From Bacteroidota bacterium (GTDB lineage: Bacteria > Bacteroidota > Ignavibacteria > Kapaibacteriales > UBA2268), in NCBI GenBank assembly GCA_024278075.1, contig JAJRTW010000155.1, positions 4,191 to 68,190 of the forward strand: 64,000 nucleotides of DNA, read 5' to 3'. Positions 3,988 to 48,900 of this stretch are shown here, piece by piece (the first letter of the stretch is position 1; the number at the start of each line of letters is the position of its first letter). The notes below the pieces were generated by a model, which worked only from the letters and a program-made list of their open reading frames with translations, ran no database searches and was not told the origin of the DNA. The position numbers and the translations under genes are program-made.

Positions 3988-4011
3988 AATTTATGCTCCG
4001 GTCAAAGGGAT

Positions 4012-10297: not shown

Positions 10298-10339
10298 TTC
10301 TAATATGAATACAGTAGTGCATCATCTCATAATAAATTA

Positions 10340-13856: not shown

Positions 13857-13857
13857 C

Positions 13858-13885
13858 CCGCCTATTGCGGGACTTTTACTCTTAT
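13858..13885 (+). terminator. Rho-independent terminator candidate
   Basis: Hairpin cccgc-ctatt-gcggg followed by 'acttttactctt', directly after the stop of the PD40 gene. Confidence 0.45.
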
Positions 13886-14073
13886 GCTTTGTATCTATTT
13901 GGAACCATGAGGCTTAGTCAGATATTGTATGATGATATTGGGCTCAATATTGAGAATAAAATAATATTCGTATCAATTGCTTGACATGCATCTTGGATAT
14001 TTTATGAATAATGCGGGTTAACGACTAACGCCCGGCATTTGCATCCGTCAACCTGCATCAAGCGTCTAAAGCC

Positions 14074-15165: not shown

Positions 15166-15198
15166 AGTGCCGTTAAGTATGTTTCCAAAATACTCGGG

Positions 15199-15807
15199 TT
15201 AATTGCCTTTGTTCTCAAAATGAACGAAATCAATAAGAAAGACTGCCCCAAGGAGCACAGCTTTAAGATTTGGGCCAACGGCTTCCTTGAATTGAATCCC
15301 AAAACTATCGGCGTCGGTAATTGCTTCTTTAACGAACCCGCCCCATTTTTTCCTCAATGTTCCGATTTCCAAGCCGCCTTTTGCTATGCTGAAAGTCCAG
15401 GGCTTCAGGGCCGGTGCGTCCAGCCGGCACATTTCATAGCCAAAATTATCAATTGCAACGTATTTTTTCCTTATCAATGCAAACTCCCACTTAACGGTTC
15501 CAAGCTTTTTATCATTGCTGTCAAACACGTAACATTCATGGAATAACCACTTGAAAGGCCGTTTGACTTTAAGGAGGATATTGCCGGATGAATCAAGGAT
15601 ATGGATTTCAAAAGAACGCATTGCTTTTAGAAACAACCTGCCCATGGCCGATCCGCCAACCTCGACGGCAAAGAATATCCTATTACCGGATTGATCGAAT
15701 ATTTCATATTTATTTTTCTGTTCGAATCCGGTCAGGATTTCGCCCCATTCCTTCACCTGGGAAATGCCAAATACCGATATACTGTCCAGAAATGTTAAAT
15801 CTGCCAT
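15199..15807 (-). CDS. Scramblase/LURP-one-related (tubby-like) family protein
   Basis: 202 aa. The pattern 'FEIHILDSSGNILLKVKRPFKWLFHECYVFD...LGTVKWEF' resembles the PLSCR/LOR fold. Weak call. Confidence 0.35.
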   Translation of the reverse strand: MADLTFLDSISVFGISQVKEWGEILTGFEQKNKYEIFDQSGNRIFFAVEVGGSAMGRLFLKAMRSFEIHILDSSGNILLKVKRPFKWLFHECYVFDSNDKKLGTVKWEFALIRKKYVAIDNFGYEMCRLDAPALKPWTFSIAKGGLEIGTLRKKWGGFVKEAITDADSFGIQFKEAVGPNLKAVLLGAVFLIDFVHFENKGN

Positions 15808-15984
15808 GTGGATATATTCACAGATTAATAAAAAAAACCTTTTTGATGATTATTCAACAATCAAATTAACAAAAAAGTTACCAAGCCGGAAATAAATCGT
15901 GCGTGCCCGAATGCGGCAGATATATGTTATGGAATAAAATAATTATAGAATAATAATATAGAATAAAATAATGGGATCTTCATT

Positions 15985-16244
15985 GCCAAGTCAGGTGTTA
16001 CACCTGACGTGCTTGAGCTGTCTTGTTTTGTCAGTTGTAACAACTGACGGTACATGGCAGGATGCAAACCTTTCAATCATTTGTAGGGGACGGTTCATAA
16101 CCGTCCCGAAATAATTGTCGTGTTGTTAGGGCAGGTTTGGAACCTGCCCCTACGATTCTTATTCTGTTATTGGCAACTTGCGATAACATAACGTAGTATT
16201 CGAGTATAAATTATGAGCCGCTCTTATTTTAACCGGACACTACT
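15985..16244. repeat. Repeat element copy E3: cluster of four perfect hairpins ending in the shared terminus 'ttttaaccggacactact'
   Basis: Hairpins tcaggtgttacacctga (15991), gtcagttgtaacaactgac (16030), gggacggttcataaccgtccc (16086) and agggcaggtttggaacctgcccct (16128). Flanked by the 18-bp perfect direct repeat 'tgttatggaataaaataa' (15915 and 16245). Confidence 0.65.
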
Positions 16245-23334: not shown

Positions 23335-23928
23335 ATGAATGACTTCGTTTTTAAAATAAAATCTTCTATCTCGGAGAGCATAACAGTCAAAACCGCTTTG
23401 ATGAATAACTGTATTGCGGAGATTGAGGCCATCGGTAAAAAGCTGGCTGAGATAATTGGCAGCGGCGGCAAGATAATGTTCTGCGGCAATGGCGGCAGTG
23501 CGGCCGACAGCCAGCATCTTGCAGCAGAGCTCGTCGTCAGGCTCCGCAGCAGCATCAACCGCAAAGCCATCCCAGGGCTGGCTTTAACAGTAGATACATC
23601 AATCCTGACCGCCGGCGGCAACGACATAGGTTTTGCCAATGTGTTTGCACGCGCGGTGGAAGCTTATGGCAAAGAGGGCGATGCCTTAGTTGCCATATCA
23701 ACCTCGGGCAATTCGGAAAACGTACTGAATGCCGTTAGCACGGCAAAGCAAAGAGAAATAGTAACTATCGGGCTTCTGGGCGGGTCGGGCGGGACCATTC
23801 TTTCGGAGTGCGACCTGACGGTTGTTGTGCCGAGCAAAGTAACGGCGCGGATACAGGAATCGCATATTTTGATTGGCCATATATGGTGCGAAATGATAGA
23901 GGAAATTAATTTTCCGGATATGTTCTAA
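23335..23928 (+). CDS. gmhA: D-sedoheptulose-7-phosphate isomerase (SIS domain)
   Basis: 197 aa with 'KIMFCGNGGSAADSQHLAAELV' and 'ISTSGNS'. Confidence 0.8.
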   Translation: MNDFVFKIKSSISESITVKTALMNNCIAEIEAIGKKLAEIIGSGGKIMFCGNGGSAADSQHLAAELVVRLRSSINRKAIPGLALTVDTSILTAGGNDIGFANVFARAVEAYGKEGDALVAISTSGNSENVLNAVSTAKQREIVTIGLLGGSGGTILSECDLTVVVPSKVTARIQESHILIGHIWCEMIEEINFPDMF

Positions 23929-23977: not shown

Positions 23978-24019
23978 TTTTGGCCACCTTAGCTCAGTGG
24001 TAGAGCAGCTGATTTGTAA
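23978..24019 (+). tRNA. Truncated tRNA-Thr(TGT): 5' half only (acceptor, D-arm, anticodon stem/loop), then divergence
   Basis: GCCACCT-TA-GCTC-AGTGGTA-GAGC-A-GCTGA-TTTGTAA-tc.. . The expected 3' anticodon-stem strand (TCAGC) and the T-arm are absent. Island junction. Confidence 0.6.
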
Positions 24020-24106
24020 TCTTCTATCTTATGCCGTAATCTGCTAAATAACAGCGTTTATTGATTGATGAGTAACCAGTGAGTAACCAAACAAACAGCT
24101 ACGGGA

Positions 24107-24325: not shown

Positions 24326-24477
24326 ATAAACTATGAAAAACGTTTTTCATATATCGCTAATGCCTTACCAACAATACATATAAGCGGCTATGAAAAACGT
24401 TTTTCATACGTCTTTCTTGGATACATACCTATAATACATTATTATTGCAGCAAATGTAAAATATTGCTGTAATACTA

Positions 24478-25191
24478 ATGACCTACATTCAGACACCAGG
24501 GACATATTTATCATCCGACAGTTGTGACTGTTGCGAGGACGAGCAGATCGTTCTGCAGTCGCTTTCTTCATTGTCAGAGAATGATGATAGTACGCCGATT
24601 GATTATCCGTTCAAGGCTTTGGTTTCATGGGTGTTCGGTCAGCTTGGACATAGCTACTACCAAGCGATTGCAGAGATTGCCAGCCGAATTAATTACAACC
24701 GAGGTTTCAAATGCTATCCCTTTCAATGGGATATGCTGACAAAAGCCTGCTTCAGAAACGATGAAATTGAAATCGTAGTTAACACCTACGGGAATCTCGC
24801 CCTCAAAAAAATAATTCAGGAATACAGCGAAAAAAAATTATCAGAAGCCGAATTGAATGTCATTATTCAAACGGTGTCCGAAGTAAGTGGAAAACCGTTA
24901 GCAAGGGTTGAGCTTATTCTTAAAAATTTATTTTGGGCAACAAAGGACGGTTCGGTGAAATGGGATGCACTCTTGCGGCCAAATACTTATCAGTCGTATT
25001 ATGAAATGAGGACAGTCCCTGAAGAATGGGACAAATGCTTCTGGGATTGCAAACTAAAGAACGCTCTGTTTGGTTCGCTCAAATGGATATTTATTGTCGG
25101 CGGTATTGTCGGCGTTGCTTATGTATATCCAAAGCTGCCAAAACACTTGCAGCCTCATAGGAAATTGTTGAAAGGTAAAGGGGATAAATAA
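24478..25191 (+). CDS. Hypothetical C-tail-anchored protein, paralog 1 of pair
   Basis: 237 aa with a C-terminal TM 'WIFIVGGIVGVAYVY'. The central region aligns with the next gene (NYNRGFKCYPFQW..ILKNLFWATKDG vs NHNRGKKCYPIKF..ILKNMFWAIYDG). Confidence 0.5.
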   Translation: MTYIQTPGTYLSSDSCDCCEDEQIVLQSLSSLSENDDSTPIDYPFKALVSWVFGQLGHSYYQAIAEIASRINYNRGFKCYPFQWDMLTKACFRNDEIEIVVNTYGNLALKKIIQEYSEKKLSEAELNVIIQTVSEVSGKPLARVELILKNLFWATKDGSVKWDALLRPNTYQSYYEMRTVPEEWDKCFWDCKLKNALFGSLKWIFIVGGIVGVAYVYPKLPKHLQPHRKLLKGKGDK

Positions 25192-25817
25192 TGAGCTATA
25201 ATTATGACAATACGGTTGTTCAAAGAATGCCTGCCCCGGTACGAGGGATGGACGGATTGAGCGGTGGCCTCAAGAAGTCCGTGCTTCCCTACAGATTAGC
25301 TACGTTTGAACTCCATAATCGAATTAATCATAATCGTGGTAAAAAATGTTATCCAATAAAATTTAGTTGGTTCACAGATGCCTGCTTTGACTATGATGAA
25401 ATAAGGACTGTCATTGATGACTATATTAAATTACTCTCCCAAGACACTATTAAAAAATATAATGAGAAGACATTAAGCCAATCCGAATTAAATAATATAG
25501 TACAGAAGGTAGCACAAGCCTCTGGAATTATTAGGGAGCGGGCAGAGATCATTCTGAAGAATATGTTTTGGGCAATATATGACGGCGATATTAAGCATGA
25601 TGACCTTGTCCGAGATGCAAACAATGGGGGAAACAACAATGGGGGGGCAAATCAGGATGGGGGGATAGATATTTCTGAACTTAAATCAAAAATATTGGTA
25701 GCAAGAGCGAGTAAATATGGTAATTGGATACTCGTTGCCGCTGCCGGTGTTGGCAGTATTGCGGCAGTTCAGTATTTCAGAAAAAAAGGCAAGAAAAAAT
25801 CCCGCAGCAGGAAATAA
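25191..25817 (+). CDS. Hypothetical C-tail-anchored protein, paralog 2; begins MSYN..GLSGG
   Basis: 208 aa with a C-terminal TM plus KKGKKKSRSRK tail. ATGA start/stop overlap with the upstream gene. Confidence 0.5.
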   Translation: MSYNYDNTVVQRMPAPVRGMDGLSGGLKKSVLPYRLATFELHNRINHNRGKKCYPIKFSWFTDACFDYDEIRTVIDDYIKLLSQDTIKKYNEKTLSQSELNNIVQKVAQASGIIRERAEIILKNMFWAIYDGDIKHDDLVRDANNGGNNNGGANQDGGIDISELKSKILVARASKYGNWILVAAAGVGSIAAVQYFRKKGKKKSRSRK

Positions 25818-26372
25818 ATGGAACTAAAGCGAGAGAATATCGGCAGTGGTGATTCTGCTGTGCGGAAAACGGTTAAGGCTCACATGATACGACTGGCTCG
25901 CAGGGATGCCGGCGAGGAAGCTATCATTGAGCTGGCAATTAAATTTCAGAAAAAAGCAGACGACGATCTGCACAAAGCGAAATTAGCTCTTGATTGGGTT
26001 ATTGAAAATATAGAGTACAAATTCGACAAGGAATTAGTCGAAAAATACTTCCCGGACGAAAAGAAACCGGAATCAGTCGAGTTTGTCACAGCCCCGGTTC
26101 ACCTGCTGAAAACCAAAGAGGGTGACTGCGATGATATGTCGGTATTGTTAGCGGCTTTTTATATCGCAATGGATTTGCCGGTGAATTTCAAAACGATTGC
26201 GTGGAAGGAAATTGAACCACGCAAGAAATCGAAAGACGCTTTCAGTCATGTCTATACCGAGGTCGGGCTGTTTATTGATGACGAACCATATTGGATACCG
26301 AGCGATCCGGTGATTAAGGAATTCGGCAAGGAAAAAGCACCCGTGAACAGAGCAGAAATATTTCGAGTATAA
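25818..26372 (+). CDS. Transglutaminase-like / papain-fold Cys-His-Asp domain protein (putative peptidase)
   Basis: 'EGDCDDMSVLLAAFYIAMDLPV' (G-x-C...L..A....G-x-P pattern), then 'SHVYTEVGLFIDDEPYWIPSDP' (His then Asp) matches the transglutaminase-like cysteine-protease core. Confidence 0.45.
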   Translation: MELKRENIGSGDSAVRKTVKAHMIRLARRDAGEEAIIELAIKFQKKADDDLHKAKLALDWVIENIEYKFDKELVEKYFPDEKKPESVEFVTAPVHLLKTKEGDCDDMSVLLAAFYIAMDLPVNFKTIAWKEIEPRKKSKDAFSHVYTEVGLFIDDEPYWIPSDPVIKEFGKEKAPVNRAEIFRV

Positions 26373-26401
26373 ATTATTATCAGCATATAGGGGAAATAAC
26401 G

Positions 26402-26938
26402 ATGGGATACAACTCAGGAACAGCTATTGCGAACCGAAATAGAAGTTTAAACGGGCTGGCCGGTTGCGGATGCGGCGGGGCCCCTGTAATGGGACTTAGA
26501 GGACTTAGTGCATTGACTGACGAAATGACGGCGAAAGTCCTTGCCCATATCAACAATCTTACGACAGCCAATATTGCGAATATCGCAGCCAAATTGGTAG
26601 CCGGCGACACAACACCTTTGGTCAATGAATTATACAATGCGGTCAGGGCTGCATGTAATACGGGAACCGAGGCTGAGGTTAAGAAAAAAATCACAGATTA
26701 CATTGCGACTATGAATCCGGCGGATTATACGGCTATCGGTGCTGGTATTATCACAGGCAACAGGGATGCACTTATCAGCCATGCTAACGCTGTAGCTAAT
26801 AAGGTATGCTCGGAGACTTTCCTTGAAAAAATAATCCCTGATGAATTAGAAGCAGGTTTCAAAAAGCATAAACCGACGTTGATAATTGCCGGTGCTGCAC
26901 TGATCGGTGTTATTATTTTGAAGAAACTAATGATGTAA
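26402..26938 (+). CDS. Small tail-anchored protein, paralog A (MGYN..GLAGCGCGG)
   Basis: 178 aa with a C-terminal TM 'LIIAGAALIGVIIL'. Shares the N-terminus and GCGCGG motif with the next gene. Confidence 0.5.
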   Translation: MGYNSGTAIANRNRSLNGLAGCGCGGAPVMGLRGLSALTDEMTAKVLAHINNLTTANIANIAAKLVAGDTTPLVNELYNAVRAACNTGTEAEVKKKITDYIATMNPADYTAIGAGIITGNRDALISHANAVANKVCSETFLEKIIPDELEAGFKKHKPTLIIAGAALIGVIILKKLMM

Positions 26939-26947
26939 GGTGACGCT

Positions 26948-27433
26948 ATGAGTTACAACACAAGCAATGGAACATTGAGCGGAATATCGGCATTGCCTTA
27001 CGGCGGTGACGGAGCGGCAATGCTGCCTTATAAACCCGTTGGGCAAACGGTTGTGAATGGGAATACGCCGATAGTGCCATATAAGCCTATTGGGCAAACT
27101 GCGGGTTGCGGTTGCGGTGGTAATTGCAATCATAACAACGGCCTGTCAGGGCTTTCGCAGGACGATATGGCGAAGGTGGCACTCGATCATTTCCAGAATC
27201 TCGGATTAGCAAAGCAATTATCCATTGGTGGTGGAATGGTGTCTGGCGATTTGAATCCACTTGCAGAGGAAATCGGCATTGCAGGGGCGAAGATTTGCAA
27301 GAAAGGGACTATTGAGGAATTAAAAGATAGGTGGGTTGCCGGCAAGGATTGGGTTTATATCGGTGGAATAAGTGTATTGAGCATGGTGATATTGAAACTT
27401 GTGTTGAACGCAAAGAATTCGAAGAAAAGGTAA
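26948..27433 (+). CDS. Small tail-anchored protein, paralog B (MSYN..AGCGCGGNC..GLSGLS)
   Basis: 161 aa with a C-terminal TM and an SD 'aaggtga' upstream. Confidence 0.5.
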   Translation: MSYNTSNGTLSGISALPYGGDGAAMLPYKPVGQTVVNGNTPIVPYKPIGQTAGCGCGGNCNHNNGLSGLSQDDMAKVALDHFQNLGLAKQLSIGGGMVSGDLNPLAEEIGIAGAKICKKGTIEELKDRWVAGKDWVYIGGISVLSMVILKLVLNAKNSKKR

Positions 27434-27445
27434 AGTGGAAAGATT

Positions 27446-27835
27446 ATGTCTTATAACGATGAAAATAACAGTGCAGGCTATGATACCGCTATATCTCAAC
27501 CTCCCATACGTTTTGAAACTCCTCTGAGGATCAGGACGGGGCAAGTGTCTGATTGCCTGAATCCTGGCAGCCTATCAGGATTGACGTTGAGGGAAATTAA
27601 AATTGATCTTGCTAAGAAATTAGCAGAGCTGACACCGGAAGAACAAGAGAAAATCAAAAAAGCAATGGCATCACGGGATCAAGATGAATTAGCGAAACAA
27701 GTAAATAATATTTTAGAAGAGACATCTGTCGAGGAAAAGACAGGTTTTGGGAAATTTTGGGCTGAATATAAATCGTATGTGATCGGGGCAGGTGTCAGCC
27801 TTATTGTATTAACAATCGTAAAGAAGTATATCTGA
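27446..27835 (+). CDS. Small tail-anchored protein, paralog C (MSYN..SLSGLT)
   Basis: 129 aa with a C-terminal TM 'VIGAGVSLIVLTIV'. Confidence 0.5.
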   Translation: MSYNDENNSAGYDTAISQPPIRFETPLRIRTGQVSDCLNPGSLSGLTLREIKIDLAKKLAELTPEEQEKIKKAMASRDQDELAKQVNNILEETSVEEKTGFGKFWAEYKSYVIGAGVSLIVLTIVKKYI

Positions 27836-27836
27836 T

Positions 27837-29387
27837 ATGGATATAGCAACATTAGAAGACCGTAATCTTGGTACAGTATCCGGCTTGGGCGGCTGGGGAG
27901 CTGATATGAATAAAAAGTGGGGAGGGACTACAGCATCGCTTCATCTGCAACCTATTCGTGAACGCAAGCTATATCATTATAACGATATTACGAGATGGGA
28001 AGATGCGAACGGCAATTCACCGAAAATCAAAGCAGAAATTGTCCGGCGTGGTGCCGTGCCGCATTATTCCATCCTTGGCCACTTGGGGCTTGCTCAACAG
28101 TTCATCAGAGGCGGAGATGTGCATATCTTCACCGATGATGTTGGGAACTTAATAATATTTGGGCTTTATGAATGCCGGAGTGATGACGTCCGGAAATGCT
28201 CGAAGCCTTCAAGGATGAGGGTGTTATATGATGCTGGAGTGCTGTTCAAAGATATTAGTCCCAGTATTGTTAATAAAACAATGGTCAAAACGGATAGGAA
28301 GACAGGTTCAGGATGGCCCGGCGAGACTACCAAGAATATATTTTGGGATAAAAAATGGATGAACAAAATGATACAGCGGGAAAATGAGGGGTTCTCTCCT
28401 GTGCCGTATCTGTATTTTGTTTATGATGTTAATCCGGTAACATTTAGCAGTGTTGTGATGGACATTGCGAATGTAGTATTGGCTTCTGCCGGCATGATTG
28501 CCAATTTCGTGACGGGCGGGGTTGTTAGCCCAATAGTCAATGCCGGTGTGAGTGTATTTACCAAATTGGTTGCGGGAGTTGCCAAAGACGGGAACATAAC
28601 GATCAATGATTTAACTGATGCCGTCGTTGCTTCAGCCCCGATATTGCTATCCGAAGATGACGTAGCCGCTACCCTGAAGAAAAATGTACCGATTGACATA
28701 AAGCCTCTTCAATCATTAGTCGAAGAAGGTGCTTTGGTATACCAAGCAGCGGCAAATGATGATCACGAATCTGTCTCGAAGTTGCTTGGAATTGATATTC
28801 GTTCGTTGGCCGGCCAGTTCCTCATGGCTGACCTGAAAAGTTATGATACTTATTCAATAACTGGTTCGGCACAGAAAAGATTATCTGATGTCGAAAAAAT
28901 CATGCAGTCGGTGCAAAATGCAGATATGATGTTGAATATGACAACGCAATACGACAGAATGAGCAGGGCGGCTTATGTCGAAAAAAACGCATTAATTCAT
29001 CACCCGATTCAGCAGTTTTTGATTAATGCTCAGGCAAATGTACAGATTAATAGCATGACAGATGAATTGAAGGGATTCATTGCCGGGTTCCCCAATGCTT
29101 TGGGTGCGGTTAAAATGATTGTACAAAACAATGATATGAATGTTCAAGAATTTAACGCTCTTTTGAATATCATTACGAACAGAGATATAGGGAAAAACGA
29201 TTTAGACCGATTAACAACAGACGCTTTAATGGAAAGGGCGAAGCATTATAAAGGCAAAAAATTTGTATTGCCATCGAACCTGCCTAACCATTTGATCGAT
29301 ACTGTTTCAGAAAAAATTAACAGGGAACTGCCTGGCGTAACAGTAATTAATCCAAAGAAACAGAAATATTACAGGGAGTTTGTATAA
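27837..29387 (+). CDS. Hypothetical 516-aa protein (N-terminus ..TVSGLGGWG..)
   Basis: Long ORF in the structural block with no Walker A, so not a terminase. The internal hydrophobic segment 'ANVVLASAGMIANFVTGGVVSPIVNAGVSVFTKLVAGVA' could be a membrane or fusion-like segment. Confidence 0.45.
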   Translation: MDIATLEDRNLGTVSGLGGWGADMNKKWGGTTASLHLQPIRERKLYHYNDITRWEDANGNSPKIKAEIVRRGAVPHYSILGHLGLAQQFIRGGDVHIFTDDVGNLIIFGLYECRSDDVRKCSKPSRMRVLYDAGVLFKDISPSIVNKTMVKTDRKTGSGWPGETTKNIFWDKKWMNKMIQRENEGFSPVPYLYFVYDVNPVTFSSVVMDIANVVLASAGMIANFVTGGVVSPIVNAGVSVFTKLVAGVAKDGNITINDLTDAVVASAPILLSEDDVAATLKKNVPIDIKPLQSLVEEGALVYQAAANDDHESVSKLLGIDIRSLAGQFLMADLKSYDTYSITGSAQKRLSDVEKIMQSVQNADMMLNMTTQYDRMSRAAYVEKNALIHHPIQQFLINAQANVQINSMTDELKGFIAGFPNALGAVKMIVQNNDMNVQEFNALLNIITNRDIGKNDLDRLTTDALMERAKHYKGKKFVLPSNLPNHLIDTVSEKINRELPGVTVINPKKQKYYREFV

Positions 29388-29863
29388 TGTATAACAGAGA
29401 AAATGTAGTTGCTACTATGCGTAAGCCGTGCAGTCAATCCTGTTTGCCAGACGATGCCGACTGTAACCCATGCGATCAGTCTCGTGGCGTTGATGGGACT
29501 GTGAATGTGAATTTAATATTAAACTCCGGCAATGACGCTTCAAGCCGAATGCCAATCGATGCAAGTACGCAGTCTCCGGTATTTCAGCCATACGTTTTAC
29601 AGCCGAATATGGTAACGCCTACGATGGTGCAACCGATGATGATTGAGCCGGGTATTTATGAAAATAAATACAATTCCGATGTCAATATTCAATATCCGGA
29701 CGGGAGTATTGTAGAAAGTGGCGACGGAATTATCTATGAGCCACAACCCGGCAACGGACAGCATATCCCCGAAGGCCATCGCCATAATCAATTCCAATAT
29801 ATCGACAGAGCGAGGGTGACAAAGAAAAGTTGTGTTGAGAAGTTTTACCCAGAGTTTATATAA
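29387..29863 (+). CDS. Cys-rich hypothetical protein (MYNREN.., CSQSC..DCNPCD)
   Basis: 158 aa; ATGT overlap with the upstream gene. Confidence 0.4.
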   Translation: MYNRENVVATMRKPCSQSCLPDDADCNPCDQSRGVDGTVNVNLILNSGNDASSRMPIDASTQSPVFQPYVLQPNMVTPTMVQPMMIEPGIYENKYNSDVNIQYPDGSIVESGDGIIYEPQPGNGQHIPEGHRHNQFQYIDRARVTKKSCVEKFYPEFI

Positions 29864-31278
29864 TGAGTTACAGAACTGCTAATAACACGATCCAGGGATT
29901 GGGGCAGGTTGATTATAACGCTGTCCTCGATCCGCTATGGGCTGATGCCAAGCGTGCTACCGACAGGTGGTCGCAGTCCAGCAACAATCCGGCTGTGCCG
30001 TTTCTCAATAAGATGTGGGAATTGCTTGGGGCTAATAATTGGATATATCGACTGGGCGGGGGGGCCCCCATCAGTGGGACTACATGGGACTTTGGCGACT
30101 ATCATATATCTTATACCGCAACGAACTTTGACGGGGGTAACCATCCGTCCGGCATTCCTGAATGGAATGGACAAAATCAGAGAGACCCGTACGGGCATGG
30201 CTGGCGGTTAAACTTCACGATATGCAAGCGGCCATTTGCGGGTGTGTTGTATGGCGATAGAGAGCAAGCATCGCAGACCACACGTAGGACAGCTTGGACA
30301 CCCGGCCCGCCAAAAATAAATAAATTCCCTCCGATTTACGATCGGGGTCTCCCGCTTTGCGGAAACGAAGTGCCTATTAATATAGGGTGTATCACAGAAT
30401 CAGTATTGAAGGGTGATTACTCGATAGACAAAATGGTTAATATGTATAGTGCGGCGGCTGATCCACCGAAGGTTGGTGATGATGGCAGCCTTTACCACAA
30501 CTATTATATTATGCCTGACGGCAAGATGTGGGGCTATTTCGGCGAGGGCAATGGCGAAACTATATACTGCTACCTCGGCAAATTGGACTGCCTGCCATTT
30601 GCAGCATTTCTTATGTATAATTCGTGGCCATCTGAAACATTCAGACATCCTTCCGGGAAGTTACGACTGGTAATGCCGGATGGCAGGCAATGGCTATATG
30701 ATGATTCAAGCGATGAGCCTAAGGACGATATTCGGGCAGATTGGATTAATAAAACAGGGCGAGTATGCCCTTTGACCGTAGAAAATTGTTATTTAGAAGC
30801 AGATTTTCTTAGAATATATGGCAACCCTGTTAGCACTGGCTACGATACCGGCAGAGGATACCGCTTGTATTATATGCAAGACGGGTCGGTATGGCATATG
30901 GACGAAGACAACGAATACCGGATATGTCCTTATCATTCAGGAAATCCACCCAAAGATAATCCACCAACGGATGGACAATGTAATTGCAATTGTGTTGAAG
31001 AGACAATACAAGAGACATTGTATCTGAATCCAATCAGGCAGAATGCCGATGACGTGCCGATTAATTTAATCAAGACTACGAGAATATGCGATCCTGCTCC
31101 ATATCAGGAAACGGTTAAAACAGATTGTGATGAATTATTGCCTGATATTGCCCGGCAGATGGCATTGATCCGAAGAGGTATTACACCGACGCCACAACAA
31201 TTTGCACCTGGCACTACGCCTGGCACACAACCAGAGGAAATATTTTATTTCCCAAATAATATTGGAAGAATAATTTAA
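29863..31278 (+). CDS. Hypothetical 471-aa protein (MSYR..GLGQ..) with C-terminal 5-Cys domain
   Basis: The C-terminus 'CNCNCVEETIQETLYLNPIRQNADDVPINLIKTTRICDPAPYQETVKTDCDELLP' is paralogous to the next two genes. Confidence 0.5.
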   Translation: MSYRTANNTIQGLGQVDYNAVLDPLWADAKRATDRWSQSSNNPAVPFLNKMWELLGANNWIYRLGGGAPISGTTWDFGDYHISYTATNFDGGNHPSGIPEWNGQNQRDPYGHGWRLNFTICKRPFAGVLYGDREQASQTTRRTAWTPGPPKINKFPPIYDRGLPLCGNEVPINIGCITESVLKGDYSIDKMVNMYSAAADPPKVGDDGSLYHNYYIMPDGKMWGYFGEGNGETIYCYLGKLDCLPFAAFLMYNSWPSETFRHPSGKLRLVMPDGRQWLYDDSSDEPKDDIRADWINKTGRVCPLTVENCYLEADFLRIYGNPVSTGYDTGRGYRLYYMQDGSVWHMDEDNEYRICPYHSGNPPKDNPPTDGQCNCNCVEETIQETLYLNPIRQNADDVPINLIKTTRICDPAPYQETVKTDCDELLPDIARQMALIRRGITPTPQQFAPGTTPGTQPEEIFYFPNNIGRII

Positions 31279-31287
31279 GAATAAATC

Positions 31288-31572
31288 TTGAGGAATATTA
31301 TGTATAGAACAGATAATCCAAACGGACTAAGCGGGTTGGGGCAGACTAACCCTGACTGCCCATGTACCTGTGTTGAAAAAACAGTGAAGGAAACATTGTA
31401 TATAAACCCAATTCGGCTTTCCGGCGATGACGTGCCGGTAACTGTTGCCAAGAGCGGGCGGAGATGCGATCCGATACAACAGACATCTGAATACGCTTGG
31501 GATTGCGAGACACTGTTGCCAAACATCAAGAGGAGCATTGAAAACAATCGTTACCGTGCAAGGGGTGCCTAA
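31288..31572 (+). CDS. Stand-alone copy of the 5-Cys domain (MYR..NGLSGLGQ..CPCTCVEKT..)
   Basis: 94 aa: 'CPCTCVEKTVKETLYINPIRLSGDDVPVTVAKSGRRCDPIQQTSEYAWDCETLLP'. Confidence 0.5.
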   Translation: MRNIMYRTDNPNGLSGLGQTNPDCPCTCVEKTVKETLYINPIRLSGDDVPVTVAKSGRRCDPIQQTSEYAWDCETLLPNIKRSIENNRYRARGA

Positions 31573-31631
31573 AACGGGCAGTAATTATTAAGCAAGCGAA
31601 TTATTAACTAATAAATTAAAAGGGGAATATT

Positions 31632-32123
31632 ATGCCACCGGACTTATGGATACCAGACGGAACAAGAGCATACCAGGGCGGAGAAACAGCAGGAGACTCG
31701 GCAACACGCCCTGGCGGAGGTGGAGTGCCTCCGAATAACACACAGCCTTGCCCGTGCGATTGCCGGGATGTAGTGGAGAACGAAACATGGTATATATCCA
31801 GGTCAGCATCGCAATATGCAATTCCGTTTGACATTACAAAAACGCACATGAATTGCGACCCGTATGAGGGCGAGCAAGTATACGACCCGAAGTGTCCTGA
31901 ATTCACCGCAGCCCTTCAGCAAATGGGATATACGGGGGTCAAGGGCATCAGCGGGTTGAATTGCGGCCACACAATAAGCGGATTAGCAGGCTACAAACCG
32001 GGTGACGGCGAAGCAAAAGCGAAGGCAGAAGAGCAGCCATATTACAAAAAGCCGGTACTGGTTATCGGGGCGGCTGCCGCAGTAGGCGGACTGACATATT
32101 TGTTTCATACAATGAATAAATAA
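31632..32123 (+). CDS. Third 5-Cys-domain protein with C-terminal TM anchor
   Basis: 'CPCDCRDVVENETWYISRS...IPFDITKTHMNCDPYEGEQVYDPKCPEF'; also 'GISGLNCGHTISGLAGY'. C-terminal TM 'VLVIGAAAAVGGLTYLF'. Confidence 0.5.
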   Translation: MPPDLWIPDGTRAYQGGETAGDSATRPGGGGVPPNNTQPCPCDCRDVVENETWYISRSASQYAIPFDITKTHMNCDPYEGEQVYDPKCPEFTAALQQMGYTGVKGISGLNCGHTISGLAGYKPGDGEAKAKAEEQPYYKKPVLVIGAAAAVGGLTYLFHTMNK

Positions 32124-32136
32124 TGAGGGTAGCGAA

Positions 32137-32352
32137 ATGTATCGTGCAAGTATTTTAGAAGGATTGGGTGGGGCCGAATATGACCCTTTAACCAATCCGC
32201 CCGGTGACACCGGACAGCCAACTAAATCCGATGAACAGAAATGCACAGGCGAGGATTGTTTGGACGAATGCAATGTGTATTGGCCTTTGTGGGGAGGGCT
32301 TGTATTTGTGCTATATACATGGTTTTTGCCCAAGCTAAGTACAAAGAGATAA
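32137..32352 (+). CDS. Small protein (MYR..LEGLGG..) with C-terminal TM
   Basis: 71 aa with the C-terminal hydrophobic segment 'LWGGLVFVLYTWFL'. Confidence 0.35.
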   Translation: MYRASILEGLGGAEYDPLTNPPGDTGQPTKSDEQKCTGEDCLDECNVYWPLWGGLVFVLYTWFLPKLSTKR

Positions 32353-32376
32353 TTAACAATTATATAATATATATCT

Positions 32377-33021
32377 ATGGAGGATTTTATGAAACGCAGG
32401 AGGAAAGGTAAGATTAATTTCGGTGCTAATTTCAAAAAAGCCACGGCCCAACCTGCCATTAACGAAAGCCTTTGGGCTTTGCTGGCTCTGCCATTGTGGA
32501 TAGTGCCATCGTCCGTTCTCAAGCTAACCGGCTGGAGTGGCTGGGCGATGAGTTTCGCAACCACATGGCTGGCCGGGGCATTGTTTGACAAGCCGGCAAT
32601 TCGATACGCCGCAGTAGGACTGGGCATTACTCAGATCGGTTATACGAAAATGAGCGGTGCTTTGAATGACATAGGCATACCGCCCTGGCGAATGGGCGGC
32701 GGAGCCGATTACAACGGACAGAAGATAGAAGCGAAAAAGGACGAATCCGGCGGGGCAGCAGGGCTGTTCGGGATGCAGGGCTATCCGAGTCCGATAGCAT
32801 TACCGGTGCAGGAAGGGGCAAGGGTGATTAACACACCACAAGGCCCGATTATGAGCAGACCCGCACCTGAATTGACAACAGCACCAGCACCATCGGATAC
32901 AATGATGGGCATGAGCGGCTATAACGCTGACGACGGCGGCCAGCTTAACGACAATGTAAGTTTAATGCCGGGAAGATTCCAGCGGCCTACATTGCATGAC
33001 GCATATAGCAAAGTGGGTTGA
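32377..33021 (+). CDS. Hypothetical membrane protein
   Basis: 214 aa with two central hydrophobic helices and a Gly-rich C-terminus. Confidence 0.4.
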   Translation: MEDFMKRRRKGKINFGANFKKATAQPAINESLWALLALPLWIVPSSVLKLTGWSGWAMSFATTWLAGALFDKPAIRYAAVGLGITQIGYTKMSGALNDIGIPPWRMGGGADYNGQKIEAKKDESGGAAGLFGMQGYPSPIALPVQEGARVINTPQGPIMSRPAPELTTAPAPSDTMMGMSGYNADDGGQLNDNVSLMPGRFQRPTLHDAYSKVG

Positions 33022-33079: not shown

Positions 33080-33712
33080 ATGGAACAGAAATTTCTACCG
33101 GGCAATGAAATAGTTGCGAAACCCGGAGCGCCACCACCAGGGACAAGGAGTGAGGACACCGTCTTGTTAGGCTTCGATACAGCTTATTGGGCATCCGGTG
33201 CAGTCACAATCGACGAACAGCAGTTGTTTGCACAGTCATCGGTGACAAAAACACCGAGATACAGGAGCTTCGTTTTTGATACGGAAGCTCAAAAGAAAAA
33301 CATGATAATCACGGGGCTTAGGGCTTCGCATATCATGGAGTTTGCAGCTCTTGGCACAGCACCGTCTGCTGTCAGCCAGATGGTATTTGAGGAATTCTCT
33401 CTTTTGGAGATTACACTTCGTGAGAAGAAATATCCTTCGATACCGCTTGCTGAATTGCTGCCATACAAAGGCTACTGGAACGGATCATCTGTCTCGCATC
33501 AGTTGAACGATTATCCGTATTACACACTGCCGGAGCCGATAATTGTTCCTGAAGCAGGTAACATCGACTTTAACTTCTCACCGCTTTCGGGATACACTAC
33601 CGGTGCGTCGAACAACAGCAACCCGCAGTTGCCAGGACTTGGATTAACAAGCAACTATGGCTTCTTTATCAAGTTTTATATCTATGGTAAACAGCGTAGA
33701 GCTATTGCGTAA
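33080..33712 (+). CDS. Hypothetical (possible virion/baseplate) protein
   Basis: 210-aa ORF with a consistent plus-strand coding run. Confidence 0.4.
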   Translation: MEQKFLPGNEIVAKPGAPPPGTRSEDTVLLGFDTAYWASGAVTIDEQQLFAQSSVTKTPRYRSFVFDTEAQKKNMIITGLRASHIMEFAALGTAPSAVSQMVFEEFSLLEITLREKKYPSIPLAELLPYKGYWNGSSVSHQLNDYPYYTLPEPIIVPEAGNIDFNFSPLSGYTTGASNNSNPQLPGLGLTSNYGFFIKFYIYGKQRRAIA

Positions 33713-33752
33713 CCAAGTGGTTGGTGGATTGATTTTAATAATCTCTGGTTCT

Positions 33753-33772
33753 CCCCCCGGTTGTCCGGGGGG
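33753..33772 (+). other. GC-only stem-loop (ccccccgg-ttgt-ccgggggg) in intergenic space
   Basis: A perfect 8-bp G/C stem within an AT-rich island, with no U-tract. It could be a regulatory or processing hairpin. Confidence 0.4.
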
Positions 33773-33800
33773 CGGATCAGTTTAAACAGAGAGGAAAGCA

Positions 33801-34652
33801 ATGGAAGCAAAAAGTCAATTATTTGGCTCTAAGATATTTAATGTGGTCAAGTCATTGTCGGTTACGGCGACAACTGGTACGGACACCGTAGAGGAGTATT
33901 TGCGTACACCGGATTCGTATATGAAGGTAAATGCAATTCGTGCGGAGGTGTGGCACGGCGGCACTAAAATATTGCCGACTGCTCTAAATTTGGACAATAT
34001 GACGGTGCAGCTTCAGGATGTAGGCGAATCGGATAGTTTGTTTGCCTCGAACCCGATTCATGTGTTCACATTGAATAAGCTCGGCAGCGGCGACAATTTC
34101 AGAGGCTTCGTTTTTGAGCCTGGAAAAAGGCTCAAGATAACATTTGTGCATGATGGTTCGGGTGCAGGGAATATCACTTCAGGCACACTTGAATTGCGTT
34201 TGATTTTCTCAGGCAAGAAAATTGAGAAACCCGAAGGCCGCCTGCTTTCATTAAGCCGGCAGTTCTATAATCATTGCATGAAATTCACTATTCCTGTCGA
34301 TAGTGATGGCGTAACGCTAAATATGCCTGCTCCGGGCTTGGATATGGCTATCGATCAGATGGCAGTCGAAGTAATAAACAACGGCACGATAATTCAGTGG
34401 AACAGTGCCTCGCAGGATAAGTTGAATTTGAAGATGGAGGAACTGCAAGGCGATAATTTGTTCGGAACCGGCAGTATGGATGTCTTCTCAATGGAAGAAG
34501 TGGGAATGAATATTAACTTTGAGGGATTCAACTTCGACGCAGAGACCGATATTGAAGCGACGGTGAGCCATTCATCGGTGAATGAGACTTCAAACGCCTA
34601 TACGGTAAAGCTAATATTTTCCGGCTCGCCCAAAAACGGAATATTATTTTAA
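33801..34652 (+). CDS. Hypothetical structural protein
   Basis: 283-aa ORF. Confidence 0.4.
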   Translation: MEAKSQLFGSKIFNVVKSLSVTATTGTDTVEEYLRTPDSYMKVNAIRAEVWHGGTKILPTALNLDNMTVQLQDVGESDSLFASNPIHVFTLNKLGSGDNFRGFVFEPGKRLKITFVHDGSGAGNITSGTLELRLIFSGKKIEKPEGRLLSLSRQFYNHCMKFTIPVDSDGVTLNMPAPGLDMAIDQMAVEVINNGTIIQWNSASQDKLNLKMEELQGDNLFGTGSMDVFSMEEVGMNINFEGFNFDAETDIEATVSHSSVNETSNAYTVKLIFSGSPKNGILF

Positions 34653-34663
34653 GGGAACAAACG

Positions 34664-35389
34664 ATGCTAAAAGCTCTTGATAGTACGGATTCCACTTACC
34701 TGGCCGGAGTGTATAAAAGCCGGTGGCAATCGGCGATTCTGTCTTGGTTTTCTTCTACTCAATCTACTCAGCCATCGGACTCTCACATGCCAGACCGTTG
34801 GGACGGGCTGATTTATGACAGCGGCGGTGTCGAAATGGAAAAGCTCGGTGCCGATGTTGCTTACACCGGTTCGGAAGATTTGCAGAATAATCCATATTCG
34901 GCACGTTTGAGACCTCTAACGGATTATAGCTTTCTGAAAGCAGCGAAAAATATAATGATAGTCAAATGTGTATTTAGTGCGTTTGATGCTACGAAGGTTG
35001 GCAGTTCTCATCAAACTACTGCCGTCAATACGGCTTTGTCAGATTCCCTGAGCAATGTAAACAACGCATACATACAGTCACGTTTTTTGAATGACATGCC
35101 TGTCACTTGGATGCCAAATTTATTCAGGCCCATAGTTAAAATCGGCGGTACGAATATCTTCAGGGAATTGAAGTTGTCGGCATTCGGCGATAATAATAAC
35201 AATGAAGGTGATTTAGGGATCGGATGGCCACTTCCATTTGAGTTTCACAAATACGAAATGTTCAATGATCCGATTGATACTATTGATGTTGAGGCGGCAG
35301 TCGGGCAATTCATCGACGTTAGCGGTACTTTGTATTGCAAACGGTATCCGGTGAGAATGGACATGGTTGTTACATATCAGAAAAAGTAA
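34664..35389 (+). CDS. Hypothetical structural protein
   Basis: 241-aa ORF. Confidence 0.4.
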   Translation: MLKALDSTDSTYLAGVYKSRWQSAILSWFSSTQSTQPSDSHMPDRWDGLIYDSGGVEMEKLGADVAYTGSEDLQNNPYSARLRPLTDYSFLKAAKNIMIVKCVFSAFDATKVGSSHQTTAVNTALSDSLSNVNNAYIQSRFLNDMPVTWMPNLFRPIVKIGGTNIFRELKLSAFGDNNNNEGDLGIGWPLPFEFHKYEMFNDPIDTIDVEAAVGQFIDVSGTLYCKRYPVRMDMVVTYQKK

Positions 35390-35390
35390 T

Positions 35391-35915
35391 ATGAAAATGA
35401 CATCACAGCAGGTGTACAATTTAATATTAAGCACCTCAATTTACATAACCGGACTGATAGACGATTTTGACGACATCGACCCGAGAGAACTGGCGGAATG
35501 GGGGCATTCGGTCGCCAAATACGAAAGCATGTACGACACGAAGGCCAAAAATCCCGCAAGCTCTGCTAAAGGGCTGATGCAATTAGTGGACAAGACAAAA
35601 GAATGGATGGAAAAGAAATACTATGGCGGCGAAATTGCCGAATCGAACAAAATGTATGACCCGAAATATAATGTTAAAATCGGGCTGGCTTATTTAGCGT
35701 ATCTGTTCAACAGGTACAAACACGAAAGCGACCCCTGGAAACGGGCGGTAATCGCATATTATTATGGGCATTATAAGTCCGAAGACCCTGACGGATATTG
35801 GAAACGTGTATTTGGGTATAATAAAGAATTTGACTACGGAGATTTAGGGAAAGATTACAAGCCCGAATATACTGATTTACCAAAGCAAAAGGGGTTCTAT
35901 TTAGAATTTACATGA
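35391..35915 (+). CDS. Lytic transglycosylase (SLT domain)
   Basis: 'AKYESMYD...SSAKGLMQLVDKT' (ES...GLMQ) and 'AYYYGH' (AYNxG-like) signatures. Confidence 0.65.
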   Translation: MKMTSQQVYNLILSTSIYITGLIDDFDDIDPRELAEWGHSVAKYESMYDTKAKNPASSAKGLMQLVDKTKEWMEKKYYGGEIAESNKMYDPKYNVKIGLAYLAYLFNRYKHESDPWKRAVIAYYYGHYKSEDPDGYWKRVFGYNKEFDYGDLGKDYKPEYTDLPKQKGFYLEFT

Positions 35916-45950: not shown

Positions 45951-48900
45951 TTGAGCAACTGGAACCGCAAGTGGCCTCGCAAAGCCGATACAAAACCATC
46001 ATTAATGCGTGTCCTGAAAAGAATTCATAAACATTATATAGGATATGGTGCAGAGGCATTCAAATATAGTTTAGACGAATATATTAGGCTCTACTTGGAT
46101 TATAGGTTCCAGGGAAAGGGAATCAATAACTATAAAGGTGATATCGAATCAAGAGAATATATTGTAATGTATTACGGACTTGATACGCTCCCTGAGCCGT
46201 ATGCTTCATTGGTAAACGATTTTATTGGTCAAAGCAAGAATATATCATCTCCAACAATAAATTCAGGCAAGGACATGACATTAATGGAACAAGCACAGCA
46301 CAACTTCGAGAAAATAACGAAGCTGTATTCATTGGCCAAAGAGAAAGGGAAAATCAAACCTGATATGATCTCCGCTCTTGACAATGGATTTGAGTCTATT
46401 GGTGACTTGATTGGTGTGGTATATGAACCGGTAAATATTATAAACCCAGATAAATTAAAGAAAATCAACTATGCACCCGGCAATACGACAACAATTGAAA
46501 CGCCAAACGAATCCATAAAAGCAAAGTATGTGTTAGTGCCACTCATGGACTTAATAGAATCTAATGATCCGTATTCGTTTAAAAGGAACCCGGATTATCC
46601 TGAATTTTGCCAAACCAGGAATTATGCACAGACGAAAGCCGAACAAAATAAGGTAATTAGCTTTTCCAAAGATTTCAAACCGGAACATCTGATTAATAAT
46701 TCGCCGGACGCCACAACAGGCCCACCAATTATCACAAAAGAAGGGATCGTGCTTGGCGGAAATGGACGGGCAATGATTTTAAAGCGAATTCATCATAAAA
46801 AAGGTTTTGATGAGTATTCTCAATTATTAGAACGGAATTTAGAATCATTCGGATTTAGTCCAGGCTGTGCGGCCCACATGATTCTTGCCCGCATGATTGA
46901 TATTGACTATAAAAAATGTGCCGCATATAGTAATAAACTTAATCAATCGACTATGCAGGAACGGGACGCAGTGACACTCGGTATCGGCTATGCGAAGCAA
47001 ATTAGTGAACAGGATTATACAACACTCGCAAAAATATTTGAGAATTCCGAAGAATCAACTTTTTCGGCCACACTGAATAATGCCGTTTCGCAACGACAAA
47101 TCATTTCCGTACTGGAGAAGTCAGGGCTGATTACTCCACAAAACCGTACTCAATGGATTAGCGAAGGCACCGGCGAACTTTCCAAGCAAGGCCGTGCGAT
47201 ATTAGAATCCGTTCTTATCGGCTATATTATGCCGGATAAGGCATTGATGGAAGCGGCACAGAACTATACAAATAAATTAGTCAAGTCACTGCCATTATTG
47301 ATACAAATTCACAATATGTCCGGCACGTGGAATATAGTGCCGGATATAAAAACGGCTATCCGGGAAGAAGTTAAACGACGGCGTGCAGGTGCGACAAAGG
47401 CGGATTATTTACGGCAGGATGATATGTTCGCAAGTGGCAAATCGGATATTGTGCCGGAGAATGTTCAATTAGTTTGGAAAGCCCTGGACGGTGGGGTATT
47501 GCAATTCCGTGATTTCCTCAAGAAATACATTCGCACGGCAAACAATGAAATGTCCGGCGGCTCGATGTTCGGCGAATCCAAAGTAAAATCAATCGACGTT
47601 CTTCGCAAACACATTAGCAATACAGGACTTGGTGATAATATGTCATTAATGCAACAAGCACAGCAGCAGTTCGAGAAAATAACGAAGCTGTATTCATTGG
47701 CCAAAGAGAAGGGGAAAATCAAGTCTGATATGATCTCCGCTCTTGACAATGGATTTAAGTCTATCGGCGAATTGATTGGTGTGGTGTATGAGCCGGTGGT
47801 AAAGACAAGGACACGGGAGTGGGCTTTGATAATGAGTATTCTGGACACACATGAATTTTGCATGCATAAATCAAATTCTTCACAAAGAGAACGTAAAGAA
47901 TGCAGAGAATTAAACGAGTCCCGACAAAAGGAATTGTTAATACTAACATTGACAAAACCAATTAAGCCCATAATGGATATAACAGATTTTAGTAAAATTG
48001 AGGAAACAGTATATAATATATTATATGCCCGCAGACCTAATACTATAATATCACAGTTAAAGAAATATAGGATAAATCAAAAGCTAACTGATGAAATGAT
48101 TCTTGACGTTACGGCTATATATATGTCCGGTGAAACAAGCCGAAATCAGCCGATATTCCATCGCAAAGTAGATGCTTTAATGAAGCAAAAGAAGAAGAAT
48201 ATTAGACTATGGAATAAGATGAGAGCTTATCTCCCTACTCTTGGTACGACCGATAATACATTATGGGACATAGCATTTAAGGAAAAAGGCGATATAGTAT
48301 CGAGACATGGAGAGGAGATAATCTTTTCACCAACTTATGAAGAACTTATTTATTGGATATATGAATATAGTGATATAAAGCCAAAAGCTGAGACAGTTCC
48401 CAAACCACAGGAAAAGAAAACGGAGACTAAAACAAATAACAACAAATTCCCGTTCCCTGGCGATGCAATAAAAAAGACTGAATTTGATAAATGGTTCGAG
48501 ACTGCCGAAAGGAACTACAAAGCTAAAGATTTAAGTTATTCTGCATTCCAGGAATTGGATGAAATGTTCGCTCCCATAGGTGAAGACGACCAGAAGGCCA
48601 TTGTTCAATATCTGTTCGCCAATGCACCGGACAAACTTAAGAAATTAGTAATGTATGGTAAAAAAGCAGCAACCACTGGTTGGTGGGAAGCTGATAATAT
48701 GAGTAAAAATGCACCTCCGACAAGTGATTTCGACGCAGGAAAAGATATTCCTGCTGAATTCCAAAAACATAGACGAATCAAAATTGTTGACTATGAATTG
48801 AAACCGGACAATGAAAATCTTTGGGGAATTATAGGAACAAGCATCAGTACAGATGTTCACCGCCCCCCAATGAATGGGGCTGAGTTTAATGATAAAGGTG

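Follow-up and report, generated by a model that had tools for sequence, protein, structure and literature searches.

Phage receptor-binding proteins and the membrane-linked vertex and spike complexes of PRD1 and PM2 are built as an anchor that carries a variable head, and small cysteine-stapled structural units are known from the disulfide-bonded helical hairpins of the twin Cx3C and CHCH proteins. The integrated element described here lies in a stretch of 64,000 nucleotides (nt), hereafter the window, of contig JAJRTW010000155.1 from the Bacteroidota assembly GCA_024278075.1 (positions 4,191 to 68,190 of the forward strand), in which a cysteine-containing module of about 65–70 residues (the Cys domain) recurs in three adjacent genes, as paralogous copies of one new protein family. 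As in phage receptor-binding proteins and the internal-membrane phages PRD1 and PM2, a conserved attachment part is combined with a hypervariable distal part, and as in PRD1 and PM2 the genes are found among many small membrane proteins and a lytic transglycosylase of virion type. Unlike in the described receptor-binding and spike proteins, it is the C-terminal part that is conserved here and the N-terminal part that varies; unlike in PRD1 and PM2, sequence scans detected neither a double jelly-roll capsid protein nor an FtsK-type packaging ATPase.

All three open reading frames (ORFs) are present (Table 1). The middle one (31288–31572) encodes 94 amino acids (aa) from a TTG start, and its public product has 90 aa, starting at the ATG at 31300. 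An earlier sequence-only reading of the window had proposed that the three genes share one cysteine spacing, and this was confirmed by pairwise BLASTP: the 94-aa and 471-aa proteins aligned with E = 1e-19 and 48% identity across 65 residues, the 94-aa and 163-aa proteins with E = 4e-6, and the 471-aa and 163-aa proteins with E = 2e-5. Smith-Waterman scores were compared with 2000 shuffles per comparison, in which the composition, cysteines included, was kept; z was 28.6 (94 versus 471 aa), 9.7 (94 versus 163 aa) and 8.6 (471 versus 163 aa), and 0 of 2000 shuffles reached any observed score. Where the sequence-only reading had set E > 0.01 against shuffled controls as its refutation, the values found were thus all at or below 2e-5. 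A chance or compositional resemblance between cysteine-rich stretches is refuted by these E-values, by scores that no composition-preserving shuffle equalled, and by a pattern and synteny common to 30 independent homologues, and we give it practically no weight. That the three segments are true paralogous copies of a previously undescribed domain is held with high confidence. Their cysteines, C1 to C5 in order, are C373, C375, C377, C409 and C422 in the 471-aa protein, C24, C26, C28, C60 and C73 in the 94-aa ORF, and C40, C42, C44, C75 and C88 in the 163-aa protein.

The family was collected by searching 1.84 billion cluster representatives exhaustively with HMMER, using a profile of the three copies (E ≤ 1e-3). 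This returned 34 proteins, and after subtraction of the three from the window and one false positive 30 true homologues were retained; P0023, a cysteine-free repeat protein, was dropped as a homologue. Word-indexed searches with the 94-aa and 471-aa proteins recovered only the queries themselves, and the same kind of search with a 37-copy profile recovered only P0032, so that the exhaustive search was needed to reveal the family. P0014 and P0021 are annotated as hypothetical proteins of metagenome-assembled genomes of the Kapaibacteria group (Bacteroidota), labelled Candidatus Kapabacteria and Candidatus Kapaibacterium, respectively, and P0021 sits inside a 1.58-Mb Kapaibacterium contig.

The domain was also found to be undescribed, as had been supposed. 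The three window proteins had no match in Pfam, PHROGs or NCBIfam, ten larger homologues had none in Pfam, and when 37 domain copies were searched against Pfam at E ≤ 1 no family was matched by more than one copy. PDB sequences gave no match with the 3-copy profile, nor with a 37-sequence profile at E ≤ 10, and no fold similarity was found in fold libraries or PDB chains. GenBank phages held no relative of the domain or of the gene block in which it lies, and the 72,556 plasmids of PLSDB held no relative either. A degenerate DNA pattern (CPC[DN]C-x6-ET[WYF]Y) had no match in IMG/VR or in the GTDB representative genomes, the genome of the window included, and one match on a 1.6-kb contig from the Joint Genome Institute. 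With about 30 clusters in 1.84 billion representatives, the domain is a clean new family and a candidate entry for domain databases.

Cysteine statistics were taken from 53 non-redundant domain copies, drawn from the homologues and the fetched loci. C4 was fixed in 53/53 copies and C5 in 52/53; C1, C2 and C3 were each singly dispensable, with at least two of the three in every copy. The patterns were CCCCC (28 copies), C-CCC (13), -CCCC (7), CC-CC (4) and CC-C- (1), the fifth cysteine of the last being apparently displaced in the alignment, and fewer than four cysteines were seen in 0/53 copies. Judged from this alignment, the minimum set is four cysteines, namely C4 and C5 with any two of the CxCxC triad. 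The five-cysteine consensus of the sequence-only reading is slightly too strict, as four suffice across the 53 copies. The dominant spacing is C-x-C-x-C ... C-x12-C, with CxxC only in one subgroup, through an insertion, and extra cysteines at the hairpin tip come as a pair (Cx2C or Cx4C) in 5/5 cases. The Kapaibacterium-type proteins P0021, P0028, P0031 and P0034 (L005 10001–11005) additionally carry four C-x3-C pairs (CIDGC, CMDGC, CTAGC and CYAAC) between the Cys domain and the anchor, which resemble twin-Cx3C disulfide hairpins.

Clustering of the copies separated two classes by position. Copies of the proximal class have the motif ETWY[IL]S, a loop one residue shorter and a helix of the form C..[LIV].AAL+..GY, and are, with few exceptions, the final copy ahead of a C-terminal hydrophobic anchor; the anchor-adjacent copies of one Kapaibacterium subgroup cluster apart from the other proximal copies. 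To the distal class belong first copies, the copies in small stand-alone proteins and those that end large unanchored proteins. Tandem proteins always had the distal copy first and the proximal copy after it. Within the window, the 471-aa and 90-aa proteins are distal and the 163-aa protein is proximal: its motif reads ETWYIS, its hairpin loop is shorter by one residue, and its helix is CPEFTAALQQMGY. Hydropathy places the C-terminal hydrophobic anchor of the 163-aa protein at residues ~140–161, in support of the earlier suggestion that the third copy is membrane-anchored. None of the Cys-domain proteins has an N-terminal hydrophobic segment or signal peptide.

Head, distal copy, proximal copy and transmembrane helix are fused into one chain in P0018 (826 aa), P0014 (723 aa), P0009, P0010, P0011, P0017, P0020 and P0029, and are split over adjacent genes in the window and in the related loci L004 (893 + 85 + 330 aa), L010 (304 + 60 + 417 aa) and L005 (144 + 182 + 75 + 334 aa). 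Of the 12 domain-carrying elements (the window and 11 fetched loci), 11 combine one or more distal copies with one or more proximal anchored copies. The region ahead of the domain ranges from 0 to ~790 residues, and residues 1–360 of the 471-aa protein are without a homologue in the related loci and the other family members. Mainly from the fused-or-split pattern, we infer that distal and proximal copies work together physically.

Our proposal, tentative and held at a little less than even confidence, is that the module acts as a conserved stalk or assembly joint in a membrane-anchored protein of host-range type whose heads can be exchanged, within a probably viral temperate element, and that the three split polypeptides associate. 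The module would fill one fixed slot in a block of ~20 genes of temperate integrative elements. Distal-class copies would carry hypervariable N-terminal heads, the proximal-class copy would be tied to the C-terminal transmembrane anchor, and the two classes would bind each other. In the window the unit would consist of the 471-aa protein (head and distal copy), the 90-aa protein (distal copy alone) and the 163-aa protein (proximal copy and anchor), and elsewhere of one chain.

The related loci comprise a homologue and its 10-kb flanks. The domain genes occupied the same slot of one conserved co-oriented block in 11/11 loci fetched via domain homologues, which supports a confinement of the domain to related mobile islands, a point that the sequence-only reading had raised as a check. 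The block begins with a ~200-aa tail-anchored protein, a transglutaminase-fold protein, small tail-anchored proteins, a ~500-aa protein and a ~160-aa protein, continues with the Cys-domain protein or proteins, a small protein, a ~200-aa membrane protein and three conserved proteins (~210, ~140 and ~240 aa), and ends with an SLT transglycosylase, a coiled-coil protein, two small proteins, a CHAP hydrolase and a fibre-like protein of 500–870 aa. The order from the transglutaminase-like to the fibre-like gene recurs in loci L004–L012. Given so rigid a slot, the domain serves as a specific marker for a block that virus and plasmid annotation has largely missed.

The transglutaminase-fold protein, always at the head of the block, has a single cysteine; orthologues were found in seven loci, with an invariant GDCD...HV...P-D (Cys-His-Asp), and the protein is a candidate maturation or processing protease, or cross-linker. 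The 516-aa protein, always two genes upstream of the Cys-domain genes, has orthologues in seven loci at 20–31% identity (jackhmmer E down to 1e-173) and no match in any library scanned. The ORF at 29387–29863, which the sequence-only reading had called cysteine-rich as well, does contain five cysteines; they are poorly conserved, and the protein belongs to an unrelated family. The ORFs 33080, 33801 and 34664 are possible shell proteins; they had no match in PDB, Pfam, PHROGs or NCBIfam, and were not detectably related to one another by hhalign. The 283-aa ORF 33801–34652 is an internal tandem duplication of a ~140-aa unit, which is a single gene of 128–166 aa at the same position in L005, L007–L010 and L013.

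A search of genomes and IMG/VR with an alignment of the CHAP protein gave no match. A 3-sequence alignment of a block protein retrieved one IMG/VR contig, L013 (IMGVR_UViG_3300033075_001822), of which 663–16043 is a more distant version of the block, with the transglutaminase-like, ~140-aa and ~240-aa families, two phage lysozymes, and the ~500-aa family fused into a 1336-aa CHAP-containing protein. Scans of IMG/VR and the GTDB representative genomes yielded no domain copy and this one distant, domain-less relative of the block (in IMG/VR).

Table 1. Features of the Cys-domain genes, the surrounding block and the element boundary (nt positions in the window unless given as residues).
Feature	Position	Strand	Description
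5' half of a tRNA gene (GGCCACCTTAGCTCAGTGGTAGAGCAGCTGATTTGTAAT)	23984..24022	+	Broken in the anticodon loop; read from the sequence; likely attL
Transglutaminase-fold cysteine protease-like protein	25818..26372	+	Head of the block; Pfam Transglut_core, E = 2.4e-8
516-aa core protein	27837..29387	+	N-terminal V-S-G-L-G box; Gly/Ala-rich hydrophobic segment at residues 203-245
158-aa Cys-containing protein	29387..29863	+	Directly upstream of the Cys-domain genes; 5 Cys; conserved neighbour, different family
471-aa protein	29863..31278	+	Unique N-terminal region (residues 1-365), C-terminal distal-class Cys domain, no membrane anchor
I-Q-G-L-G box of the 471-aa protein	residues 10-14		N-terminal
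Cys-domain copy 1	30958..31173	+	Distal class; residues 366-437 of the 471-aa protein
90-aa protein (94 aa from TTG 31288)	31300..31572	+	N-terminal L-S-G-L-G box, then stand-alone distal-class Cys domain
Cys-domain copy 2	31336..31551	+	Residues 17-88 (94-aa numbering); copy used for the AlphaFold model
163-aa protein	31632..32123	+	Proximal-class Cys domain, two boxes, charged linker, C-terminal transmembrane helix, short tail
V-K-G-I-S-G-L-N and I-S-G-L-A boxes of the 163-aa protein	residues 103-119		
Cys-domain copy 3	31728..31940	+	Proximal class; residues 33-103 of the 163-aa protein
214-aa membrane protein	32377..33021	+	Closes the Cys-domain slot downstream; orthologues in 8 loci, one of them the 1.6-kb metagenome contig L001
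Three conserved proteins (210, 283 and 241 aa; ORFs 33080, 33801, 34664)	33080..35389	+	Orthologues in related loci
SLT lytic transglycosylase	35367..35915	+	Pfam SLT, E = 1.3e-15; conserved in L005, L006, L008, L009, L011 and L012

With the three window copies only, AlphaFold2 gave an uninformative model (predicted local distance difference test, pLDDT, 52). With the 37-sequence alignment (pLDDT 76, predicted template modelling score, pTM, 0.34), the module was modelled as a long beta-hairpin (strands 10–21 and 35–46) followed by an amphipathic helix (57–70). In this model strand 1 starts with C2 and C3, C1 lies a little ahead of it, C4 ends strand 2 opposite C3, and C5 caps the helix, so that all cysteines would meet at the hairpin base. 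The cluster would staple the hairpin to the helix, with disulfides and Zn(Cys)4 both in play. The metal- or disulfide-stabilised module of the sequence-only reading is thus reasonable, as the cysteines gather at one point of the model. On the side of disulfides are the pairwise gain of extra cysteines, the cysteine-rich proteins and the twin Cx3C pairs of some homologues; on the side of zinc, or of oxidation after release, is the lack of a signal peptide in all Cys-domain proteins.

If zinc were bound, the module might act in the cytoplasm as a Zn(Cys)4 finger, binding nucleic acid or a protein of the host, for instance in regulation or anti-defence, and have no structural role. Four cysteines as the conserved minimum, proteins that lack signal peptides, and the sufficiency of any two of C1–C3, as expected of interchangeable metal ligands, all agree with such a finger. 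It is nevertheless regarded as very improbable, since the domain has no CxxC knuckles and matched no zinc-finger family or fold, is consistently linked with a membrane anchor at the C-terminus and with large hypervariable N-terminal regions, lies in the middle of a block of membrane proteins and hydrolases, away from regulatory or replication genes, and gains its hairpin-tip cysteines pairwise. Zinc ribbons and treble clefs likewise are short beta-hairpin modules that bring four conserved cysteines together, and the treble clef has one ligand at the helix N-terminus. Their two CxxC/CPxCG knuckles, or one knuckle and a helix, were not found here: the N-terminal spacing is CxCxC or Cx3C with variable inserts, the hairpin strands have 12 residues, and the module differs further in its coupling to a membrane anchor and in the absence of a sequence or fold match. 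The twin Cx3C and CHCH proteins are similar as small cysteine-stapled units, and Cx3C pairs adjoin the domain in the Kapaibacterium homologues; the module differs from them in being predicted as a beta-hairpin with one helix and not as a helix-helix hairpin.

The element spans at least 40 kb (24030–64000) and reaches at least the window end. At its start, the broken tRNA half sits between the last host gene (SIS domain, 23335–23928) and the first block gene; ARAGORN called no complete tRNA at 23984–24022, and Rfam had no match there. As no second copy of the tRNA half was found within the window, attR would lie beyond the 64 kb. L009 has a tyrosine integrase gene at its edge, and in L008 a CI-type repressor is encoded upstream. 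L004, L005, L007 and L010 are flanked by host genes, and type IX secretion system sorting domains are among the flanks of L005, L007 and L010. The elements are integrated and temperate-looking, in Kapaibacterium-like Bacteroidota, and the GC content of the loci, 29 to 45%, suggests a range of hosts.

Besides the SLT protein, the element carries two CHAP hydrolases, two glycosyltransferase-like genes, DNA methylases and a phrog_2045 gene. In its downstream part a polyvalent protein of 1476 aa (45951–50381), with a ddrB-ParB domain and a C-terminal RecA/KaiC-like ATPase, is followed by minus-strand DNA methylases and phage-type small genes; this protein has the sole P-loop (GxxxxGK[ST]) in the window. 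Library scans showed no recognisable tail tube or sheath gene in the element, and no Pfam match to a VirB4-type ATPase, a coupling protein or a relaxase was found in the window. Literature searches gave no description of such elements. The element is most likely a virus with membrane-associated particle proteins.

Hydrolases, small membrane proteins and polyvalent proteins are also known from conjugative elements, and the block could be non-viral, forming the surface, adhesion or transfer apparatus of a new integrative or conjugative element in which the Cys domain is a disulfide-bonded adhesin stalk. Such an apparatus would fit the three peptidoglycan hydrolases (one SLT, two CHAP), the small membrane proteins, the ddrB-ParB polyvalent protein and the failure of library scans to detect virus hallmark genes, and the cysteine-rich content and Kapaibacterium twin Cx3C pairs are typical of oxidised extracytoplasmic proteins. 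However, a VirB4-type or coupling ATPase and a recognisable relaxase are missing, with a single P-loop in the window; the Cys proteins have no signal peptides; a CI-type repressor, an integrase, phage lysozymes, fibre-like proteins (weak tail-fibre matches) and a DUF4376 domain are present; one related contig comes from IMG/VR and another, of 75 kb, from a 0.1-micrometre groundwater filter fraction; and 72,556 plasmids gave no match. We consider a non-viral apparatus unlikely.

Several points weigh against the module as a stalk or joint in a probably viral element. The ORFs scanned from 24478 to 62796 had no Pfam or PHROG match to a terminase large subunit, a portal or an HK97-fold capsid protein as expected of tailed phages (Caudoviricetes), no FtsK/HerA-type packaging ATPase as in internal-membrane phages of Varidnaviria type (PRD1, PM2 or sphaerolipovirus-like) was found, and the structural blocks of the other loci contain no Walker A motif. 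Elements carry anything from 1 to 4 copies, a spread that speaks against one fixed stoichiometry. The location in a virion or membrane and the chemistry of the staple are, like the physical association of the copies, things we infer. With no signal peptide, disulfides would form only after release, or zinc would be bound. The monomer model is only moderately confident (pTM 0.34), and its isolated long hairpin may be AlphaFold's drawing of an oligomeric or disordered segment. Finally, L013 has no Cys domain, which points to the domain as a lineage-specific accessory and not a core part of the block.

The proteins of the block have a further motif in common, a box of the form [LIMV]-x-G-[LIM]-[GSAN]. 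It was found within ~5 residues of the C-terminal end in 23/27 proximal copies, in the stretch that joins tandem copies, and immediately ahead of the stand-alone 90-aa copy (PNGLSGLGQTNPDCPC). In the upstream half of the block many proteins also have it among their first 25 residues, where it often follows a start of M-[STG]-Y-[NR]. Four other loci have orthologues of the ~500-aa family that keep the N-terminal box. A strict motif, [LIM].G[LIMVC][GS], was observed 10 times in the proteins of 24478–33021, versus 1.4 ± 1.2 expected and a maximum of 6 in 500 shuffles, and 3 times in the rest of the element, versus 2.1 expected. With a loose motif, N-terminal enrichment was 7/13 versus 4/20 proteins (Fisher p = 0.065).

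The protease consensus of adenoviruses is (M/I/L)XGX-G, and internal proteins of phage T4 carry N-terminal capsid-targeting sequences that are cleaved. The block is similar in having a [LIMV]-x-G-x-[GS] box near N-termini and domain borders and in encoding a cysteine protease-like enzyme. It differs in that the enzyme has a transglutaminase fold and is neither adenain (clan CE) nor a prohead serine protease, in that P1' is not limited to Gly as in the adenovirus consensus, and in that cleavage is putative. Because the transglutaminase-fold protein keeps Cys-His-Asp in all seven orthologues, the boxes are hypothesised to be processing or targeting sites.

If this protease cut at the boxes, leaders would be removed, and tandem Cys domains would be separated from each other and freed from the anchor. 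The mature product would then be a free cysteine-rich peptide of ~70 residues which, instead of tethering as a stalk, might for example serve as a cross-linking cement or form a lattice close to the membrane. The excess of the strict motif in 24478–33021 (10 versus 1.4 expected), the boxes at 23/27 proximal copy ends, between tandem copies and upstream of the 90-aa copy, their N-terminal conservation in the ~500-aa family of four other loci, and the syntenic protease-like gene with its invariant Cys-His-Asp in seven loci all argue for processing, as does the likeness to the adenovirus consensus and the T4 leaders. Cleavage is putative, however; the N-terminal enrichment of the loose motif is weak (p = 0.065), transglutaminase-fold enzymes may cross-link rather than cut, and the tandem proteins P0008, P0011 and P0017 have no box after the last copy. 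Release of free peptides appears doubtful, and is in part compatible with a joint between anchor and heads.

Nine consecutive genes (24478–32352) share an N-terminal leader, M-[STG]-Y-[NR] followed at residues 7–25 by a [LIMV]-x-G-[LI]-[GS] box. The leaders start with MSYNYDN, MGYNSGT, MSYNTSN, MSYNDEN, MSYRTAN, MYRTDN, MYNREN and MYRASI; most of these proteins end in a transmembrane helix and a basic tail, and the box is conserved in orthologues from other loci. G-C-G-C-G-G runs stand directly after an L-x-G-L box at 26456–26482 and 27104–27160, and also in P0013, P0022, P0027 and P0029 (LNGLAGCGCGG; AGCGCGGNCNHNNGLSGL), as lipobox-like L-A-G-C strings in proteins without a signal peptide. 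Lipobox, sortase and exosortase readings of the boxes were ruled out on account of the missing signal peptide and the position of the motif ~25–35 residues upstream of the transmembrane helix.

Maturation of leaders by a self-encoded protease is otherwise known from adenoviruses and T4. Taking stalk and processing together, the block might represent a new lineage of temperate viruses or transfer particles of Bacteroidota, with no recognisable capsid, portal, terminase or ATPase. About ten membrane-associated particle proteins would carry an N-terminal "Y..N..L-x-G-L-G" leader, which the element's own protease would cut, and the Cys domain would act as a heteromeric joint between the membrane of the particle and exchangeable receptor-binding heads. 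This combined scheme is speculative and rather unlikely to hold in full. If the block is a virion module, it exposes viruses of Bacteroidota of unknown capsid architecture, with an unusual maturation signal linked to a protease, and the split or fused Cys-domain proteins are obvious candidates for host-range determinants. The element as such is more intriguing than the domain.

Further features were noted in the element and its relatives. A perfect 21-nt palindrome, CTATGAAAAACGTTTTTCATA, is present in two copies (24331–24351 and 24388–24408, 57 nt apart) shortly before the first block gene, and looks like an operator. In L011, a 75-kb contig from the 0.1 µm fraction of Hainich groundwater, two consecutive two-domain Cys proteins of 482 and 509 aa are encoded at 10001–12980, the 10 kb upstream are packed with co-oriented small ORFs, and the contig looks like a free viral genome. 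A 52-nt repeat (53443–53494 and 54987–55038, 90% identical), called by neither ARAGORN nor Rfam, resembles on the minus strand a minihelix of tRNA acceptor stem and T-arm, with GCAGGTTCAAATCCTGC flanked by GAATGCAG and CTGCATTC. The gene of the polyvalent protein contains an internal 158-nt repeat (46275–46432 and 47640–47797, 91% identical), and in L002 an 886-aa relative of this protein lies beside a 2173-aa helicase/zeta-toxin protein.

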